Origin: a bacterium
GTDB taxonomy: Bacteria; Hydrothermota; UBA3073; JACQXS01; JAQTXJ01
Reading direction: 5' to 3'
Assembly (NCBI GenBank): GCA_028716385.1
Contig: JAQUPX010000004.1
Span: forward strand, 130,234 to 194,233
DNA: 64,000 nucleotides
Positions within the stretch are counted from its first letter, which is position 1; each line of letters starts with the position of its first letter. The position numbers and the translations under genes were made by a program. Of this stretch, positions 2,349 to 62,182 are shown one piece after another. A model generated the notes under the pieces. It searched no databases. It was given only the letters and a program-made list of their open reading frames with translations, and had not been told where the DNA came from.

Positions 2349-3062
2349 ATGGATATAAACTGGAAAGCGTTTTATGAAAAAGAAGCAGGTTTCAAGAGGT
2401 TTATCCCGGAGGAACAACCCGTAAACGTTAGAGGACAATTTATAAGCGAGTTGATTCCTGAAGGTGTTAATACCGTTCTTGATGTCGGTTGTGGGGATGG
2501 ATGGTTATGTAATAAATTAAGCAATAAGTATAAAGTTGCGGGTGTAGATATAGCTTTCCCGCGAGTTGCTTATGCAAAATCTCATTTTAAGAGCGAAGCA
2601 TTTTTAGTGAGTAATATTTATAATTTACCTTTCCCTGATAATTCCTACGATGCGGTTATCTGCAGCGAGACTTTAGAACATATAGAAGATTTTTCATCCG
2701 CGGTTAAAGAACTAATTCGCGTATCTAAAAAATACGTAGTTGCTACGGTTCCGAATAACCAGCCTAAAAGGACGATTTTGTGCCCGCATTGTCTACATAC
2801 TTTTTATCTGGATGGACATATTAATTCTTTTGATGAAAAAAGTTTTGCAGAAGTTTTTGGTAATTTTGGGAAAGTAATTAAGGTAAAAGATAGCACACAA
2901 ATGGGGTTATTTAATCCCAATAAAAAACATCATATAGAGTTTCCCAATTTCGTTTCACAAAATTTACATATCTGGAATTTTTTGCTTTCCCTTGGCTCAA
3001 GATTTTTTCCCATCACGGTAAGAAACGGAGATTTCCTTGGGATTGTGTGTGGAAAGAGGTAA
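2349..3062 (+). CDS. class I SAM-dependent methyltransferase
   Basis: It has the VLDVGCGDGW motif I and a Methyltransf_11-like layout. Confidence 0.8.
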   Translation: MDINWKAFYEKEAGFKRFIPEEQPVNVRGQFISELIPEGVNTVLDVGCGDGWLCNKLSNKYKVAGVDIAFPRVAYAKSHFKSEAFLVSNIYNLPFPDNSYDAVICSETLEHIEDFSSAVKELIRVSKKYVVATVPNNQPKRTILCPHCLHTFYLDGHINSFDEKSFAEVFGNFGKVIKVKDSTQMGLFNPNKKHHIEFPNFVSQNLHIWNFLLSLGSRFFPITVRNGDFLGIVCGKR

Positions 3063-3083
3063 AGATTTCAGATTTTGGAGTGC

Positions 3084-3115
3084 GCCTGTCTGCCGGTAGG
3101 CAGGGATTGGCACGG
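3084..3115. repeat. GC-rich palindromic repeat (gcctgtctgccggtaggcaggg + attggcacgg)
   Basis: This is an imperfect copy of the CCTGCCTGCCGGCAGGCAGG palindrome that recurs at 4774, 14375, 16111 and 35002. Confidence 0.6.
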
Positions 3116-3367
3116 GTAGAATAAAAAAGAAGTTTTAACAGGGATTTGAAGAGACTAGTACGAGATTGAAAATAAAAAGAAAGCGAAAATTATATTGTAA
3201 AAACGATAACAAATGATATATACGAAAAATATGGAAAAGGATTAACTAATTGTTTATTATAATCCGTGTATATTCCGCCTGAGGCGGACTAAAATTTAGT
3301 ATAGTGTTTTCTTGTAATATTTTTTATTCATAAGTATAGTAGCAAAAAAGGTAATCAATTAACTGAT

Positions 3368-4561
3368 ATGAAGAAGCGGCTAAATGAGATAATATGTCGT
3401 AAAAGGACAATAAAGTTAATACTTACAATCTTATCTAAAATCGTTAATCTTTTTCATTCCCATTCAAAAACGAAGTTTGACAGCAAACGTTTAAAAGTCT
3501 TGCATATATCTCCTATATTTTTTGATGTAAATAAGTCTTTGCAGGGAGGAGGGGAGAGGGCACCTTTTGAACTGGCAAAGACAATGGCGAGCTATTGTGA
3601 AACAAAATATATAAGTTTTGGGGAAAAATCCCAGACCTTGAGTTATGATAAATTACCTATAAAAATCTATCCATATATAGGTTTGTTTAATAACGAGAAG
3701 AATAATCCGATTAATTTCCGGTTTTTATCAGAAATAAAATGGGCAGACGTCGTGCACTGTCATCCATACTACAGCATAACTACGGCTTTTACCATACTTG
3801 TTGCAAGATTATTCGGAAAGAAAATATTTGTAACTGATTATGGCGGGTGGGTAATAAATTATAACAAAGAATTACAATTAGACAGATTGGTTGATAAGTT
3901 TCTTGTGATTTCGGAATTTGGAAAACAATTTTTTAATGAGTTTAAGACAAAAAAAGAAGTCATATACCTTGGTATAGATGAAAAAAAGTTTTATTCACTG
4001 CCAAATAAAAAACAGGATTATGTTCTTTATGTAGGCCGTATTTTACCGCATAAGGGAATAAGTTATCTTGTAGAAGCAGTGAATTCACTTAATGTAGAAC
4101 TTCATATCGTTGGCAGCGCATTGCATAAAGGGTATCTAAATTATCTTAAAAACATTGCCGATAAAGAAAGAGTTAAGTTCATAACGGATGTTCCCGATGA
4201 AGTTCTATTGAAAGAATATAACAATGCTATTGTTACGGTTTTACCTTCCGTATATAAGGATATTTACGGAAATGAGCACAAGGGGCCTGAATTGTTGGGG
4301 CTTGTTTTATTGGAATCAATGTTCTGCGAGACTCCCGTTATATGCACAAAAGTCGGGGCAATGCCTGAAATCGTTGGAGAGGGGAAAACCGGGTTTGTTG
4401 TTCCTGCGTGTGATAGTAGCTCACTTGCCGAAAAAATAGATTACTTATTAAAGCATAAGGAAATAGCAAAACAAATGGGTGCAGAAGGGAGAAAGTTTGT
4501 ATTAGAGAACTTTACTATGGATAAAGTGGCGTTGAGGTGCATAACAGAATATAGAAATTAG
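3368..4561 (+). CDS. GT4-family glycosyltransferase (Glycos_transf_1)
   Basis: The C-terminal GT-B signature is present (…LLESMFCETPVICTKVGAMPEIVGEGKTGFVV…). Confidence 0.8.
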   Translation: MKKRLNEIICRKRTIKLILTILSKIVNLFHSHSKTKFDSKRLKVLHISPIFFDVNKSLQGGGERAPFELAKTMASYCETKYISFGEKSQTLSYDKLPIKIYPYIGLFNNEKNNPINFRFLSEIKWADVVHCHPYYSITTAFTILVARLFGKKIFVTDYGGWVINYNKELQLDRLVDKFLVISEFGKQFFNEFKTKKEVIYLGIDEKKFYSLPNKKQDYVLYVGRILPHKGISYLVEAVNSLNVELHIVGSALHKGYLNYLKNIADKERVKFITDVPDEVLLKEYNNAIVTVLPSVYKDIYGNEHKGPELLGLVLLESMFCETPVICTKVGAMPEIVGEGKTGFVVPACDSSSLAEKIDYLLKHKEIAKQMGAEGRKFVLENFTMDKVALRCITEYRN

Positions 4562-4600
4562 GGTATTAGGTTATTATAAGAGTAAAAAAAAGATTAAAAG

Positions 4601-4920
4601 ATTACAGAATGAAACCACAAAAACGAATACAAAAAGAATTATTGCCACGGATAACAGACACAGATTTCCACGGATTAACAAAAAAAAACAAAAAAAGTAT
4701 AACCAAAAGAGTTTATGAGATTACAGATAGAAAAGAAAAACCAGAAAGAATTATTGCCACGGATAACAGACACGCCTGCCTGCCGGCAAGGCAGGGATTT
4801 CCACGGATTAACAAAAAAAAACAAAAAGAGTATAACCAAAAGAGTTTATGAGATTACAGATAGAAAAGAAAAACCAGAAAGAATTATTGCCACGGATAAC
4901 AGACACAGATTTCCACGGAT
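4601..4920 (+). repeat. tandem repeat, about 2.7 units of 112 bp, purine-rich, each unit containing GCCACGGATAACAGACAC…ATTTCCACGGATT
   Basis: Motif starts fall at 4644, 4756 and 4889 (periods 112 and 133). Unit 2 carries a 23-nt GC palindrome insertion at 4774-4796 that units 1 and 3 lack. Confidence 0.85.
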
Positions 4921-4937
4921 AAAATAAAATATTAAAA

Positions 4938-5300
4938 ATGCTATTATACGAAGAAATTACCGAAAAGATAATAAAAGCTTTTTATGAAGTCCATAATGAA
5001 CTAGGGAATGGGTTTTTAGAAAATGTTTATGAAAACGCTTTAATGATAGTATTAAAACAGTATAATCTAAAAGTAGAACAACAAAAAGATATAAATGTGT
5101 ATTTTAGGGATGTTTTGGTAGGTAAATATCGTTCGGATATAATAGTGGAAGATAAGATAATCCTTGAAATTAAATCCGTTTCAAGAATTACAAAAGAATT
5201 CGAAGCACAGTTAATAAATTACTTAAAAGCTACGAATATGAAAATCGGGTTAATATTAAACTTTGGTGATAAAGCAGAGTTTAAAAGGCTGGTATTCTAA
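4938..5300 (+). CDS. GxxExxY-family protein (PD-(D/E)XK nuclease superfamily)
   Basis: The 120-aa ORF contains GFLENVYENAL, which is the GxxExxY signature. It is flanked by the repeat copies described in the findings. Confidence 0.75.
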   Translation: MLLYEEITEKIIKAFYEVHNELGNGFLENVYENALMIVLKQYNLKVEQQKDINVYFRDVLVGKYRSDIIVEDKIILEIKSVSRITKEFEAQLINYLKATNMKIGLILNFGDKAEFKRLVF

Positions 5301-5331
5301 TCCGTGTGTATCCGTGTCTGTTATCCGTGGC
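5301..5331 (-). repeat. inverted copy of the GCCACGGATAACAGACACGGAT…CACGGA element
   Basis: The reverse complement of 5301-5331 is gccacggataacagacacggatacacacgga, which matches the copy at 8352-8388 and the tandem units upstream. Confidence 0.8.
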
Positions 5332-5356
5332 TAATTTTTTGTTGCTATAATTAAAA

Positions 5357-6586
5357 ATGAAAATACTGGCTATTTCTAATTTTTATCCTCCATATTATAT
5401 GGGGGGGTATGAGTTGCGGGCGCAGAATATTCTTAACGGGTTGAAAAGACGTGGACATAAAGTTTTCGTATTAACAAGCACATACGGAATAAATAAAATT
5501 TCTATAAAAGAAAATGTGTATAGAATTTTTAATTATAAACATAAATTTCCTATTTCGTTTATGGAAACGCTTCTTGAAGAAATAAAAGAAACTAGGGAGT
5601 TTAAAAAAGTGATAAAGAAATTACAACCTGATTTGATTTATGTTTTTAATATGAGGTTTATGAGTAAATCTTTACTTAAAAAAGCTTATTCGCTGAAAAT
5701 TCCTGTAGTATATGATATCGGGGATTACTGGCTTATAGATAATAGTTTGTGGGGAAAATGGCTTGATTTTTGGCAATATTCGCCCCGTTTTTTTATTACA
5801 CGGTTTATAAAATTAAAATTGTCCGGGGTAGTTAAAAGACTAAATATAACTCCACTGCTGCCCGTAGATGTGATTCCTTTTGATAAAAAGTACATATATT
5901 TTGTTAGTGAGTTTGTTAAGAATGTTCATATAAAAAAGGGGTTGGGAGTAAAAGATGCTTCTGTTTTTCATCACGGCTTAAATATGGGGTCGATAGTTGT
6001 TAGAGAAAACAAAGGATTTGTAAGTTTACCATTGAAATTATTATATGTAGGAGCAGTGATACATAACAAAGGAGTTCATACTATTGTTGATGCTCTGTCT
6101 ATTTTAAAACAAAAAGGATATGACTGCCATTTGACTATAGTTGGGGGAATTTTTGATACAGAGTATCTCAACAAAATAAAACTTTTGATAGGAGAAGAGA
6201 ATTTGCCTGTAACATTTTTAGGGCAATATCCGCATAACAAAGTTTTGCGTATGTATAAAGATTATGATATTCTAGTGTTTTCCAGTATATGGGATGAACC
6301 GTTCGGAAGAGTAATTGTTGAAGCAATGGCTGCCGGATTGGTTGTATTGGCAACCGCAACAGGTGGAAGTATGGAAGTCTTGAATGACGGAGAAAACTGT
6401 ATTCTATTTGAACCGGGGAATTCCGAAGATTTGGCAAATAAAATAGAAATCTTAAGAAAGAAACCTGAATTATGCGAGAGACTTAGTTCTAACGGTAAAG
6501 AATTTGCTAAAGATTTTGATAAGAAAAATGACATAAAGAAAATTGAAGATTATCTGTATGGGGTAGTAAAAAACTACAAAGCATAA
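5357..6586 (+). CDS. GT4-family glycosyltransferase
   Basis: It has the EAMAAGLVVLATATGGSMEVL…GENCILFEPGN (E-x7-E) GT4 C-terminal motif. Confidence 0.8.
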   Translation: MKILAISNFYPPYYMGGYELRAQNILNGLKRRGHKVFVLTSTYGINKISIKENVYRIFNYKHKFPISFMETLLEEIKETREFKKVIKKLQPDLIYVFNMRFMSKSLLKKAYSLKIPVVYDIGDYWLIDNSLWGKWLDFWQYSPRFFITRFIKLKLSGVVKRLNITPLLPVDVIPFDKKYIYFVSEFVKNVHIKKGLGVKDASVFHHGLNMGSIVVRENKGFVSLPLKLLYVGAVIHNKGVHTIVDALSILKQKGYDCHLTIVGGIFDTEYLNKIKLLIGEENLPVTFLGQYPHNKVLRMYKDYDILVFSSIWDEPFGRVIVEAMAAGLVVLATATGGSMEVLNDGENCILFEPGNSEDLANKIEILRKKPELCERLSSNGKEFAKDFDKKNDIKKIEDYLYGVVKNYKA

Positions 6587-8286: not shown

Positions 8287-8348
8287 TCGGGAATAGGTAA
8301 CAGTTAATAGTTTGCAGGTTAAAAAACAACAGACAATAGAAAAAAATT

Positions 8349-8388
8349 TTGCCACGGATAACAGACACGGATTAGCACGGATTTCGTA
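8349..8388 (+). repeat. solitary copy of the GCCACGGATAACAGACACGGATTAGCACGGATTTCG repeat
   Basis: It matches the tandem units at 4601-4920 and the inverted copy at 5301-5331. Confidence 0.75.
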
Positions 8389-14374: not shown

Positions 14375-14396
14375 GCCTGCCTGACGGGAGGTAGGG
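14375..14396. repeat. degenerate copy of GC palindrome (gcctgcctgacgggaggtaggg)
   Basis: It has the same core as 4774-4796 and lies immediately 3' of the LptD-like gene. Confidence 0.5.
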
Positions 14397-16039: not shown

Positions 16040-16090
16040 GAAGTAGATAGTGAAAACCGGAAAAAAACAGACAACAGAATACAAAAAAAT

Positions 16091-16146
16091 TAGCTACGGA
16101 TAACAGACACGCCTGCCTGCCGGCAAGGCAGGGATTTACACGGATT
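16091..16146 (+). repeat. repeat element: TAGCTACGGATAACAGACAC + GC palindrome (16111-16133) + GATTTACACGGATT
   Basis: It is near-identical to unit 2 of the tandem repeat at 4756-4810. Confidence 0.8.
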
Positions 16147-16312
16147 GAGACAGAGAATATAAAGCAGTTAAAAGTGAGAAACGAATAGTATATCAGATTA
16201 CAGATGAAATGGATTCCCGCTTTCGCGGGAATGACAAACGAGGGAAAGAAAATCATACTAAAGGCGGAGGAGGTTTAATAAGGTTGAAAAATCAGGTGGG
16301 TAGGGGAGGGGT

Positions 16313-24138: not shown

Positions 24139-24554
24139 AATTTTTTATTTGTTTGGACGTATATAGAGAAGTTAATTTATAATACGAAAAAGTCAAGCGC
24201 TTATTGAAAAGCGGGGGATTTTAATATTGTAAGGAGATAATTTTTGGACGCACCCTCCAAACAGATCGGCGGGCAGGGATAAACGCAGATTAACAGGATA
24301 AAACAAAATAGAAGATTATAGATAAAAAAAATACCAAATAAAAAGGTAAGTGAAGAACCCTATCTAAAGACGGGGCTTCCAAAAATAACAAAAACAGTGG
24401 ATTCCCGCTTTCGCGGGAATGACAAATGGGAGACGGATAGGCAAAAAAGCTTTCACCCCTATCTAAAGGCGGGGTATTCAGCCAAAAGACACTTAATAAG
24501 TATGGATTTTCGCAGAAAAAGAGAAACAGAAAATTGCCAGGGTAAAGAGAATGT

Positions 24555-34979: not shown

Positions 34980-35033
34980 GCCCCTGTAGCTCAGATGGAT
35001 ACCTGCCTGCCGGCAGGCAGGGAGCACCGGTTT
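34980..35033 (+). pseudogene. partial 5' copy of tRNA-Arg (acceptor, D-arm, 5' anticodon stem) interrupted by a 20-nt perfect palindrome
   Basis: gcccctgtagctcagatggata + [cctgcctgccggcaggcagg] + gagcaccggttt is identical to tRNA positions 1-33 apart from the insertion at 35002-35021. It diverges after the anticodon stem. Confidence 0.75.
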
Positions 35034-35046
35034 AAGGCGGTAATAG

Positions 35047-35310
35047 TTGACAAATATGTATGTTTATGTAATAACAAACGATAAGAAAAGAATATATGTT
35101 GGAATGTCAAAAGACCCTAAAAATCGTTTAATAGAACATAATGCAGGGAAAACAAAGTCAACAAAAGGATTTAGACCATGGAAGTTGATGTATATTCAAG
35201 AATGTAAAGATCGGGTGGAAGGAAGAAAACTTGAGAAAAACTTAAAATCCGGATCAAAAAAGGAAGAATTAAAAAAGATGTTAAAATGCCCCTGTAGCTC
35301 AGATGGATAG
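35047..35310 (+). CDS. small GIY-YIG nuclease-domain protein (YhbQ/UPF0213-like)
   Basis: The 87-aa ORF carries YVYVITNDKKRIYVGMSKDPKNRLIEHNAG, the GIY-x10-YVG…R…E…N core. Its 3' end overlaps the first 23 nt of the tRNA. Confidence 0.72.
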   Translation: MTNMYVYVITNDKKRIYVGMSKDPKNRLIEHNAGKTKSTKGFRPWKLMYIQECKDRVEGRKLEKNLKSGSKKEELKKMLKCPCSSDG

Positions 35311-35361
35311 AGCACCGGTTTCCTAAATCGGTTGTCGCGCGTTCGACTCGCGCCAGGGGTA
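35288..35361 (+). tRNA. tRNA-Arg (anticodon CCU)
   Basis: Manual fold gives a 7-bp acceptor gcccctg/caggggt, D-arm gctc-agatggata-gagc, anticodon stem ccggt/atcgg with loop ttCCTaa, V-loop ttgtc and T-arm gcgcg-ttcgact-cgcgc. CCA is not encoded. Confidence 0.85.
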
Positions 35362-35412
35362 GTATTAAAAATTAATCCGCCTGAGGCGGAGCAAAAATAA
35401 AAAGGGGTTAAA

Positions 35413-41975: not shown

Positions 41976-42220
41976 CACGATTTCCACGAGAATAAACTAC
42001 AACACAAAACAGAAAGATTTTTTGCACACAGAATTGCACAGATTAATACAGATTGACACAGAATTCCTAAGGGCAGGGCTAAAGATCCCCTCCAAAAAGA
42101 AGGCGGACAGGCAAGGGCTTCGTATCGTATAATGTTTTTGACGAAACAAACTCCAACTAAAAAAGCATTGACAAAAGACTTATTTTGTTGCATAAAGAAA
42201 TGAATAGTATGTAAATATTA

Positions 42221-62019: not shown

Positions 62020-62182
62020 AGAATTCTTTGGACGCAGATAAACGCAGATTAATTGGATTTAAAAGAAAACAGAACTTCTAGAGTTAAAACGGAAAAGAGA
62101 AACAGACATAATTGGGATCAACAGACTGGGACTAACGCAGATAATAGAAGATTAGACCTACAAATATAATAAATATTAATTT

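Follow-up and report, generated by a model that had tools for sequence, protein, structure and literature searches.

A GxxExxY nuclease gene between inverted heptamer arrays in a bacterial glycan locus, a candidate copy of a small mobile cassette

Positions 4878-5340 of the window, the 64,000-nucleotide stretch of bacterial DNA that was analysed, hold a GxxExxY gene framed by inverted arrays of a phased heptamer. The same unit of gene plus arms was found in many bacterial lineages, and it therefore looks like an undescribed small mobile cassette and not like a local accident. We lean, by a little, towards reading 4878-5340 as one copy of a widespread and apparently undescribed class of selfish nuclease cassettes, about 0.5 kb long and bounded by iterons. 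The features of the locus are as follows.

3083..3125, + strand: degenerate arm-like stretch with a variant of the palindrome, GCGCCTGTCTGCCGGTAGGCAGGGATTGGCACGGGTAG (weak evidence)
3368..4561, + strand: GT4 glycosyltransferase, left wall of the slot (Pfam Glycos_transf_1, E 1e-34)
4586..4877, + strand: tandemly amplified left end, with two and a half units of 119, 112 and 133 nt (TRF, repeat search)
4774..4795, no strand: 22-nt palindrome GCCTGCCTGCCGGCAAGGCAGG inside the second arm copy (sequence; same insert at 16111-16132)
4878..4920, + strand: proximal left arm, AGAATTATT-GCCACGGATAACAGACACAGATTTCCACGGAT (repeat search; local alignment with 5300-5340)
4938..5300, + strand: GxxExxY gene, predicted minimal PD-(D/E)XK nuclease of 120 aa (profile match, AF2 model, conserved residues)
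5300..5340, - strand: right arm, reverse complement of the left arm (repeat search, local alignment)
5357..6586, + strand: GT4 glycosyltransferase, right wall of the slot (domain match; orthologue P0242)
8342..8384, + strand: solo forward arm, A-run plus TTTTGCCACGGATAACAGACACGGATTAGCACGGATT, 30 nt 5' of ruvC (18-mer match)
16084..16146, + strand: solo forward arm, 1 mismatch, interrupted by the 22-nt palindrome (16111-16132), between uvrC and an ogt-like gene (18-mer match)

The nuclease gene and the repeats around it

The ORF at 4938-5300, which the initial annotation had recognised as a GxxExxY (PD-(D/E)XK) gene between two GT4 genes, was matched by PF13366 PDDEXK_3 (E 3.6e-40, 137.4 bits against a Pfam cut-off of 22) and by TIGR04256 GxxExxY (E 2.3e-40, 137.6 bits against an NCBIfam cut-off of 35), with a profile alignment spanning residues 6-119 of the 120-aa protein. 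The name-giving motif lies at G25-E28-Y31, and E28, D67, E77 and K79 are all intact. Among 83 distinct family members, E28, D67 and K79 were invariant and E77 was present in 82. The best PDB folds for the AF2 model (pLDDT 93.6) were Cas4, lambda exonuclease, splicing endonuclease and the catalytic domain of a homing endonuclease (I-Bth0305I). With its catalytic residues kept and its nuclease fold, GxxExxY is predicted to be an active nuclease enzyme, and its gene is, as judged from sequence comparison, under strong purifying selection. PD-(D/E)XK is the only domain of the lone ORF in the cassette, where no DDE, HUH (Y1), serine or tyrosine transposase was detected; PHROGs gave no match and PADLOC a single faint match to Cas4. 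The closest non-self relative in the databases has 67% identity, no near-identical second copy of the gene was found there, and the identical protein was recovered only in two short Logan contigs, both broken within the upstream repeat. GxxExxY (PF13366) and the four-helix-bundle family (PF05635) are among the commonest small 'hypothetical' families of environmental bacteria, often with dozens of paralogues per genome, and the searchable literature yielded no functional account of GxxExxY.

The neighbourhood encodes GT4, methyltransferase, creatininase, YebC and RuvC proteins and no integrase. No rRNA is present in the window, in which an Rfam scan at gathering thresholds returned one tRNA alone; a permissive Rfam scan of 4500-5400 gave zero matches, and a promoter and terminator scan gave counts not above those of shuffled sequences.

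The repeat is marked by the 18-mer GCCACGGATAACAGACAC, found on the + strand at 4644, 4756, 4889, 8351 and, with 1 mismatch, 16093; its sole reverse copy in the window is at 5314-5331. These 6 matches compare with 0.02 expected, and for the core heptamer CACGGAT the count is 17, where 3.6 would be expected. Upstream of the gene stand three forward copies of GCCACGGATAACAGACAC...CACGGAT, and downstream one reverse-complement copy. The tandem units that had been noticed upstream were recovered by TRF (4633-4920, period 133, 2.4 copies), and the repeat search gave distances of 112 and 133 nt from one unit start to the next, plus an extra partial unit from 4586. Each consists of a forward arm (4644-4675; 4756-4808) and about 80 nt of A-rich spacer with a AGATTACAGAT mini-motif, and what sets the 133-nt unit apart from the 112-nt one is the 22-nt palindrome within its arm. 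This palindrome is a separate miniature repeat, with related 20-mers at 3085, 14376 and 35002.

The proximal left arm carries heptamers at 4891, 4904 and 4914 and ends 17 nt ahead of the ATG, while the right arm begins on the final base of the stop codon, has CACGGAT on the - strand at 5300, 5310 and 5323, and shows GGC plus TAATTTTTT at its outer end. The framing by terminal inverted repeats described earlier was borne out, since 4889-4920 and 5300-5331 are 88% complementary over 32 nt; an extended pair, 4627-4677 and 5298-5348, is 76% complementary over 51 nt. The MFE fold of 4880-5345 brings the arms into pairing (z = -5.9).

The two solo copies reported with this framing are real, but they are single forward arms and not miniature two-ended elements: away from the gene, the 64 kb contain only single forward arms and no two-ended gene-less copy. 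The arm at 8342-8384 is missing from the orthologous yebC-ruvC spacer of the close relative L234, which has a different palindrome there. The arm-like stretch at 3083-3125 and a lone reverse heptamer at 3262-3268 may be a relic. The long arm pattern had one match among 185,579 species genomes, in the related MAG L003, where a solo arm adjoins unrelated genes, and the 18-mer had zero matches in viral contigs. Other spacers in the window hold related arrays, and intergenic heptamers number 16 on the + strand and 3 on the - strand, a suggestive replication-strand bias from too few independent sites.

Arms and gene across the family

The survey comprised 84 non-redundant GxxExxY loci from unrelated metagenomes. 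Its 80 metagenome loci, the best among 582 matches, represent a single clade (48-62% identity) and not the family at large. CRCRGAT heptamers were found within 150 nt of the gene in 78 of the 84 loci, in arrays of 2-4 units phased at 9-10 nt (10 nt in 162 cases and 9 nt in 65). The arms were forward upstream and reverse downstream in 45 loci and the opposite in 9, and heptamer density was 22/kb in forward orientation just upstream and 16/kb in reverse just downstream, falling to about 0.5/kb past 500 nt. The top 7-mers found de novo in the flanks were CACGGAT, CGCGGAT, CGCAGAT and CACAGAT upstream, with their complements downstream. Two or more heptamers were present in 68.5% of gene-adjacent spacers against 11.9% of the remaining spacers of the same loci (OR 16, p 6e-10), and the inverted flanks were above the 99th percentile of shuffles in 63 of 80 loci and above the 95th percentile of cross-locus pairs in 45 of 80. 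The checks proposed in the initial annotation, whether homologues are flanked by repeats of the same type and whether such repeats are equally common elsewhere, thus came out in favour of a cassette. Many loci had another layout, with no arms but forward ones, with forward arms flanking the gene on either side, or with forward-reverse palindromes on each side.

Arms of the same kind accompanied homologues at 48-67% identity in other lineages and phyla, and distant viral homologues (41-42% identity) had arms divergent to match. The arms co-diverge with the GxxExxY protein and are intrinsic to the cassettes across the family and across phyla. The choice of base at the R positions correlated weakly with host GC (rho 0.23-0.30).

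Between the two arms of a locus, identity was 97-100% at heptamer positions 1, 3, 5, 6 and 7 but lower at the two R positions (74-80%) and in the spacers (77%), and the differences included 82 G:U-compatible transitions against 108 A:C transitions. In this comparison the constraint falls on the motif (C.C.GAT) and not on pairing. A CsrA site and a DnaA box were considered as the identity of the heptamer and dropped, because position 4 varies (G/A/T) and the spacers vary.

Nine cassettes with 80-90% nucleotide identity to one another had flanks without similarity. Their similarity starts at (T)TCAGCC and stops at GGCTGAAT, which are the outer ends of the arms, where a GCC cap is carried. The median cassette size was 483 bp, and that of the window is 463 bp. 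The cassettes occupy short spacers of host operons in sense orientation, often in glycan loci; in 51 loci the two neighbouring genes run in the direction of the cassette, and in 1 both are antisense to it. Since the arms are translated in some database entries, proteins there have acquired spurious N- and C-terminal extensions. At the level of sequence, these comparisons show arms and gene to be a unit common to unrelated genomic contexts, and they support the view that the unit at 4878-5340 behaves as mobile. The ends often read TA/TTCAGCC...GGCTGAA/TA, in which the TA, being palindromic, could equally be a continuation of the inverted repeat; the loci compared gave neither an empty site nor a target-site duplication or an excision product.

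Slot turnover and gene-less arrays

In L234 the flanks of the GT4-GT4 slot are 82-90% identical to those of the window. The upstream GT4 gene has 85% nucleotide identity to its L234 orthologue up to position 4539, and similarity returns at 5349, 8 nt short of the following ATG; P0242, the orthologue of the GT4 gene at 5357-6586, has 69% amino acid identity, with gene order preserved. The slot of L234 has neither the GxxExxY gene nor these repeats. It holds a four-helix-bundle gene (23S rRNA IVS protein, PF05635) with its own, different inverted arrays, so the slot is polymorphic between relatives with both alleles filled. The comparison of orthologous loci suggested in the initial annotation likewise came out in favour of a cassette. 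The gmd-fcl spacer is a second slot used by both GxxExxY and four-helix-bundle cassettes, and as these alleles show, slots evidently turn over between cassette types. P0243, from a more distant WOR-3 relative, was examined as an empty site, having no cassette before the GT4 gene, and was rejected because its gene order differs.

CRCRGAT arrays also occur without the gene. At least 120 stretches of IMG/VR contain them, none encoding GxxExxY, so that the arrays may well not require a linked gene; no GxxExxY gene was found within 1.08 Mb of array-bearing viral loci. Such gene-less arrays far outnumber GxxExxY gene copies, and they include 54 forward-reverse palindromic pairs with loops of at most 60 nt. 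No recurrent partner gene was found beside the orphan viral arrays, where a Pfam search of small ORFs gave one amidase and a sub-threshold MTH865 match. Some phage-like contigs have arrays upstream of nearly every gene. The orphan arrays have a weak sense bias, with 30 sense and 20 antisense.

Possible mechanism, rival explanations and known systems

If the unit is a selfish cassette, its gene would be expressed through read-through from the host operon, and the nuclease would recognise the phased CRCRGAT heptamers (here CACGGAT) as iterons at both ends and then promote the spread or retention of its own cassette. As to how the cassette moves, we infer that the likeliest route would be homing-like, with cutting at arrays or at gene-less forward-reverse palindromes and repair from a filled copy, the arms serving as homology; cut-and-paste would be less likely. 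The three upstream arm copies would represent local tandem amplification, which took the left end back to 4586, and the solo arms at 8351 and 16093 would be half-ends shed or copied nearby. It counts against a selfish cassette that a recombinase or transposase is absent and that a 120-aa nuclease alone is incapable of strand transfer. The abundance of arrays without the gene weighs on the same side, as do the failure to see an empty site, a target-site duplication or an excision product and the lack of a near-identical second gene copy in the databases. Furthermore, four-helix-bundle cassettes have the same architecture without a nuclease, and the architecture may therefore reflect a mechanism acting in trans or at the RNA level.

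An explanation at the RNA level, which we regard as unlikely though deserving of attention, would make the unit an element like the 23S rRNA IVS: the arms would pair in the operon transcript, RNase III would cut the stem, the ORF mRNA would be released or insulated, and the host operon would tolerate the insertion, so that the arms would be kept for pairing and not for protein binding. The sense orientation in operons (51 to 1), the pairing of the arms in the MFE fold, the perfectly complementary period-7 arrays of four-helix-bundle cassettes and the precedent of the Coxiella IVS (PMC4990558) all speak for it. However, G:U-compatible transitions were not in excess (82 vs 108 A:C), the R positions and spacers are free to differ between arms while C.C.GAT is fixed, many loci are forward-only, forward on both sides or palindromic on each side, solo arms exist, and no Rfam family matched. 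Pairing in RNA would also be compatible with the cassette explanation as a secondary property. Somewhat more doubtful is an arrangement like REP/RAYT, in which it is the arrays that are dispersed, upheld or spread by GxxExxY as a single-copy enzyme resident in the genome and flanked, as RAYT genes are, by inverted copies of its substrate. This would fit the inverted arrays on both sides of the gene, the solo arms near it in the window, the excess of gene-less arrays over gene copies and the 54 palindromes, which resemble REPIN doublets. Yet gene and arms occur with sharp ends in unrelated contexts and give way to something else at an orthologous slot, whereas RAYTs are inherited vertically; the nuclease belongs to PD-(D/E)XK and not to HUH, the arms are not individually palindromic, and array-bearing viral loci lack the gene within 1.08 Mb.

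The initial annotation had proposed that a genome-specific, non-autonomous MITE captured the gene. Its terminal inverted repeats, its small size, the extra arm copies in the window and the lineage restriction of the exact arm sequence (the single match among 185,579 species genomes) are in line with this, but arms of the same kind on 48-67% identical homologues in other lineages mean that the cassette had its arms ancestrally and did not gain them by local capture. Moreover, the window has no gene-less two-ended copy, and an element with coding capacity is not a MITE. What stands of that proposal is a discrete unit with inverted repeats at its ends and the behaviour of a mobile element; the genome-specific capture we consider very improbable. 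It is most improbable of all that the repeat is generic intergenic punctuation of this genome and the gene lies between copies by chance, as the solo copies beside ruvC and uvrC/ogt, the related arrays in other spacers of the window and the phage-like contigs with arrays upstream of nearly every gene might suggest. The enrichment over other spacers of the same loci (OR 16), the repetition of the framing in unrelated phyla, the sole reverse copy of the window abutting the stop codon, the coincidence of unit ends with arm ends and the relative's slot without these arms all stand against it.

Several known systems resemble the putative selfish cassette in part. RAYTs, which belong to the HUH Y1 enzymes, are inherited vertically and present in single copy, and REP units are small hairpins. 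The likeness of REP/REPIN and RAYT systems lies in a gene between inverted short repeats that also occur gene-less in intergenic spacers, partly as inverted doublets; the difference lies in gene-plus-arms units in unrelated contexts and a PD-(D/E)XK enzyme. MITEs, such as the Correia elements of Neisseria, are non-coding, rely on a transposase encoded elsewhere and have defined target-site duplications. They share terminal inverted repeats, small size and an intergenic position within transcription units, and the gene-less forward-reverse palindromes resemble them, whereas the GxxExxY cassette encodes a nuclease in a conserved and intact ORF. Homing endonuclease genes of the free-standing kind, among them PD-(D/E)XK enzymes such as I-Ssp6803I, are likewise small, sporadic, selfish nuclease genes that fill a given site in one genome and are missing from it in another, but they target one conserved host sequence and lack the terminal inverted iteron arrays that bound the GxxExxY cassette. 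Integron cassettes are also compact promoter-less ORFs inserted in sense and exchanged at a fixed slot; they carry one attC, at the 3' end, and depend on an integron integrase and attI, in contrast to GxxExxY, with inverted arrays at both ends and a neighbourhood without integrase.

The closest parallel in architecture is with the 23S rRNA IVS (PF05635 S23p; Coxiella burnetii, Leptospira), which has an ORF of about 120 aa of uncharacterised role, terminal inverted repeats and heptamers beside the ORF, and lies in sense in a host transcription unit. In Coxiella, RNase III cuts the stem formed by the 28-bp terminal inverted repeats of the IVS, whose small ORF is preceded by GACAGAT heptamers, and 23S rRNA IVSs have long been suspected of being mobile (PMC4990558). 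Four-helix-bundle genes in operons have the same architecture and use slots in common with GxxExxY cassettes. The IVS protein is, however, a four-helix bundle and GxxExxY a PD-(D/E)XK nuclease (PF13366); the IVS sits in an rRNA helix and the GxxExxY cassette in an mRNA operon spacer between GT4 genes; and the IVS arms are strictly complementary with period 7, whereas GxxExxY arms have a period of 9-10, a C.C.GAT core and non-complementary R positions. The IVS stem is cut by RNase III, while the GxxExxY arms, though complementary, have substitutions without sign of selection for pairing.

It is conceivable, and we put it forward only tentatively, that GxxExxY and four-helix-bundle cassettes, the 23S rRNA IVS included, form one unrecognised superfamily of operon-embedded micro-mobile elements, each with an ORF of about 120 codons between protein-specific inverted phased arrays, in which the GxxExxY nuclease would read CRCRGAT iterons phased at 9-10 bp and home into gene-less palindromes. 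If true, this would account for thousands of 'hypothetical' paralogues and for scattered orphan arrays in bacterial and phage genomes. The sharply bounded unit offers a concrete test substrate in arm DNA or RNA, for example GCCACGGATAACAGACACGGATTAGCACGGAT, and a link to the nature of 23S rRNA intervening sequences with an ORF, a puzzle now 30 years old. The GT4-GT4 and gmd-fcl spacers of glycan operons stand out as cassette exchange slots, which matters for the reading of variation in polysaccharide loci.

Inverted arms of the GxxExxY gene

The ORF at 4938-5300, with GT4 glycosyltransferase genes on either side, encodes a 120-aa product matching the profiles PF13366 (PDDEXK_3, E 3.6e-40) and TIGR04256 (GxxExxY, E 2.3e-40). 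A motif search of the window for the 18-mer GCCACGGATAACAGACAC located the following copies:

4644, forward strand, 18-mer
4756, forward strand, 18-mer
4889, forward strand, 18-mer
8351, forward strand, 18-mer
16093, forward strand, 18-mer with one mismatch
5314-5331, reverse strand, 18-mer

Five copies are thus on the forward strand and one on the reverse, against 0.02 matches expected by chance; the core heptamer CACGGAT, with an expectation of 3.6, has 17 occurrences. The framing of the gene by inverted repeats, proposed in the initial annotation, is therefore real and far above chance. The inverted pair (4889-4920 and 5300-5331, 32 nt, 88% complementary) widens to 4878-4920 and 5300-5340 with its A/T-run cap, the right arm overlaps the stop codon by one base, and the copy measures 463 bp from arm to arm. 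The tandem repeat units described upstream are also present; they are 112-133 nt long, contain the upstream copies of the 18-mer, and in the longer one the arm is interrupted by a 22-nt palindrome. Solo copies exist as noted, but each is a single forward arm. Two short-read Logan contigs of the same organism (L001 and L002) start within the proximal arm, 60 and 47 nt before the ATG, which indicates that tandem arm copies break assemblies; arm copy number in MAGs may be mis-assembled.

The closest homologues are framed by repeats similar in kind though not in sequence (an example is ttttGCCGCAGATTTCGCGGAT on the upstream side with TAAaaaATCCGTGAAAATCCGCGGA on the downstream side). One of these genes belongs to an hsdM restriction locus; the others sit in polysaccharide operons, with an epimerase gene on either side. 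The comparison was extended to 80 diverse metagenome loci, the best 80 of 582 matches (48-62% identity to the window protein), and, with viral and look-up loci, to 84 non-redundant loci. Counted without prior assumption, the top 7-mers of the upstream flank were CACGGAT, CGCGGAT, CGCAGAT and CACAGAT, and those of the downstream flank were their reverse complements. Within 150 nt of the gene, 78 of the 84 loci had one or more CRC[AGT]GAT heptamers, and the remaining 6 had variants such as CACAGAC and ACAGGAT. Density was 22/kb for forward heptamers just upstream and 16/kb for reverse heptamers just downstream, falling to about 0.5/kb past 500 nt; 45 loci were laid out forward-upstream and reverse-downstream, and 9 the opposite way. 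Successive heptamers were spaced by 10 nt in 162 cases and by 9 nt in 65, and at least two were present in 68.5% of gene-adjacent spacers versus 11.9% of other spacers of the same loci (OR 16, p 6e-10). When the upstream flank was aligned with the reverse-complemented downstream flank, 63 of 80 loci scored above the 99th percentile of shuffles and 45 of 80 above the 95th percentile of cross-locus pairs; the two arms of a locus thus match one another. Repeat framing is thus a property of the GxxExxY family across phyla, not peculiar to this genome: the cassette idea of the initial annotation was right in essence, but capture by a MITE was the wrong framing.

The arms also enter protein annotation. 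The extra C-terminal residues of longer database proteins (134-160 aa) are the reverse arm read through, and one clade has its start codon within the left arm, where CAGATGAAC yields MNTD... Many deposited GxxExxY proteins of 135-165 aa (P0011, P0013, P0024, P0041 and others) are extended N- or C-terminally by translated arms, with tails such as ...NISDNQRKSVAKE and ...IRENPCKSVAG. These extensions are an annotation artefact.

A discrete unit in operon slots

Gene and arms change place together, as a discrete unit. Nine loci (L028, L030, L031, L032, L034, L035, L037, L039 and L040) are 80-90% identical in nucleotides over the gene, with no detectable similarity among their flanks; similarity starts at (T)TCAGCCRCAGAT and stops at ATCTGYGGCTGAAT, the outer ends of the arms. 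Arm-to-arm size has a median of 483 bp (IQR 454-566) over 63 loci. Both neighbours are co-directional with the cassette in 51 loci and both antisense in 1, with median gaps of 70 and 55 nt, suggesting that cassettes sit in operons as promoter-less passengers. In L034 the cassette lies directly upstream of a Cas2-like ORF (...YDISDNKKRTRVAKILLDYGTR, from our own translation of the DNA), and thus appears inserted within a CRISPR-cas adaptation operon; a GxxExxY match mistaken for cas4 has been noted (PMC8934634).

The slot itself turns over between close relatives. P0242, the orthologue of the downstream GT4 (69% identical), is encoded on contigs sharing the window's gene order (methyltransferase, GT4, slot, GT4, creatininase, YebC, RuvC, RuvA). 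DNA flanking the slot is 82-90% identical, whereas nothing aligns between window 4540-5348 and 5104-5950 of the relative's contig (L234), where a four-helix-bundle gene (PF05635, '23S rRNA intervening sequence protein') has its own inverted arrays of ACTGTAA-type units. Arms therefore move together with the ORF rather than belonging to the host site. The yebC-ruvC spacer holds a solo CACGGAT arm in the window and a different palindrome in the relative, and a second shared slot, gmd|fcl, is occupied by GxxExxY in L009/L010 and by a four-helix-bundle gene in L231-L233. No empty site, target duplication or near-identical second copy was found among the loci and database matches compared. Separately, a 52-nt stretch after the methyltransferase gene (window 3060-3110) is 83% identical to one after ruvC (L234 9535-9586), a further dispersed intergenic repeat common to both genomes.

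DNA motif, RNA stem and the encoded proteins

The arms could be kept for pairing in the transcript: they would pair in a read-through transcript according to the predicted fold, and the sense bias of cassettes fits an RNA role. However, of 190 transitions between paired arm positions, 82 were G:U-compatible and 108 gave A:C, and arm-to-arm identity was 97-100% at heptamer positions 1, 3, 5, 6 and 7 but 74-80% at the two purine positions and 77% in spacers. Purine choice tracks host GC weakly. This pattern argues against selection for arm pairing in GxxExxY cassettes and points to constraint on a motif, C.C.GAT, phased at intervals of 9-10 bp, the appearance expected of a protein-binding iteron array.

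For four-helix-bundle cassettes, whose arrays are perfectly complementary, the RNA-stem reading remains more natural. A consensus probe (PF05635 by Pfam, E 1.6e-52) was used to fetch five independent loci, all in sense orientation between operon genes. Forward and reverse arrays flank each gene, and their repeats keep a strict period of 7 but vary from locus to locus:

GGTTTTA, TTAGCAG, GTGACAA and GTAACGA, array units at the loci fetched with the probe; with ACTGTAA added, array units over L224, L226, L228, L229, L231-L233 and L234 5135-5935

Their architecture matches that of the 23S rRNA intervening sequence (IVS), but they are sited in mRNA operons. The Coxiella IVS, with an S23p ORF, tandem GACAGAT heptamers and a 28-bp stem of terminal inverted repeats that RNase III cuts (PMC4990558), is the closest described relative of the cassette architecture; a mobile-element hypothesis for IVS goes back to 1993 (PMC4990558). 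The Coxiella ORF is decaying, whereas the GxxExxY ORF is under purifying selection. Residues E28, Y31, D67, K79 and Q91 do not vary among 83 distinct GxxExxY sequences, 82 of which also have E77, and the AF2 model is confident (pLDDT 93.6). Its top solved-structure matches (TM-scores ~0.55) are Cas4 SSO0001, lambda exonuclease, tRNA-splicing endonucleases and a homing-endonuclease catalytic domain; no solved structure related by sequence was found. The kept catalytic residues and predicted fold indicate a probably active minimal nuclease.

Orphan arrays, other small elements and the proposed cycle

An IMG/VR scan for three phased heptamers returned at least 120 stretches, with no GxxExxY gene within 1.08 Mb of viral DNA around those listed; about half of the listed arrays are forward-reverse palindromes with loops of at most 60 nt. 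In three phage-like contigs (L151, L134 and L137), with no GxxExxY gene nearby, nearly every gene is preceded, at 10-50 nt and in its own orientation, by a forward CRCRGAT array, which often forms a pair with a CRCRGAG array. Orphan arrays overall show little sense bias, and no recurrent partner gene was found beside them on the viral contigs listed. Such arrays may have arisen as non-autonomous derivatives, may serve as targets, or may be independent of the cassettes.

A separate miniature palindromic repeat, the 20-nt perfect palindrome CCTGCCTGCCGGCAGGCAGG and close variants, occurs in the window as clean insertions, one interrupting a tRNA half copy and two interrupting CACGGAT arms:

35002-35021, palindrome
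3085-3104, palindrome
14376-14395, palindrome
4774-4795, palindrome
16111-16132, palindrome

Another dispersed hairpin repeat, GGATTCCCGCTTTCGCGGGAATGAC, has identical copies in two intergenic spacers (16211-16235 and 24399-24423). A second arm family, GCACACAGAATTGCACAGATTAATACAGATTGACACAGAAT, is found at 42024-42064 and at 1735-1775 of L003 (MAG STC_131), which also carries a near-identical solo arm of the CACGGAT type (1625-1655); the window has CGCAGAT-type arrays at 62033-62049 and 24284. At 34981-35362, a small GIY-YIG nuclease ORF (~35056-35310, forward strand, PF01541 E 3e-16) is placed between a duplicated 5' half of tRNA-Arg(CCT) (34981-35033), which stops in the anticodon loop, and the intact gene (35287-35362), into which its last codons extend. 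The arrangement resembles a tiny nuclease cassette of a second kind, one targeting a tRNA gene and carrying a replacement half.

The identity and boundaries of the GxxExxY unit rest on tool results. We propose that the gene would be expressed by read-through from the host operon, that the nuclease would recognise the arms as iterons, and that the cassette may spread in a homing-like manner; the window copy has an amplified left end, and half-arms were probably shed nearby. The orphan arrays and the nuclease-free four-helix-bundle cassettes limit confidence that the cassette is moved by its own nuclease. No description of the GxxExxY-arm association was found in the searchable literature. The window unit is typical of iteron-bounded GxxExxY nuclease cassettes, a class that spans phyla, and the nearest known kind is that of inverted-repeat-bounded small-ORF selfish elements, with the 23S IVS as the known example.
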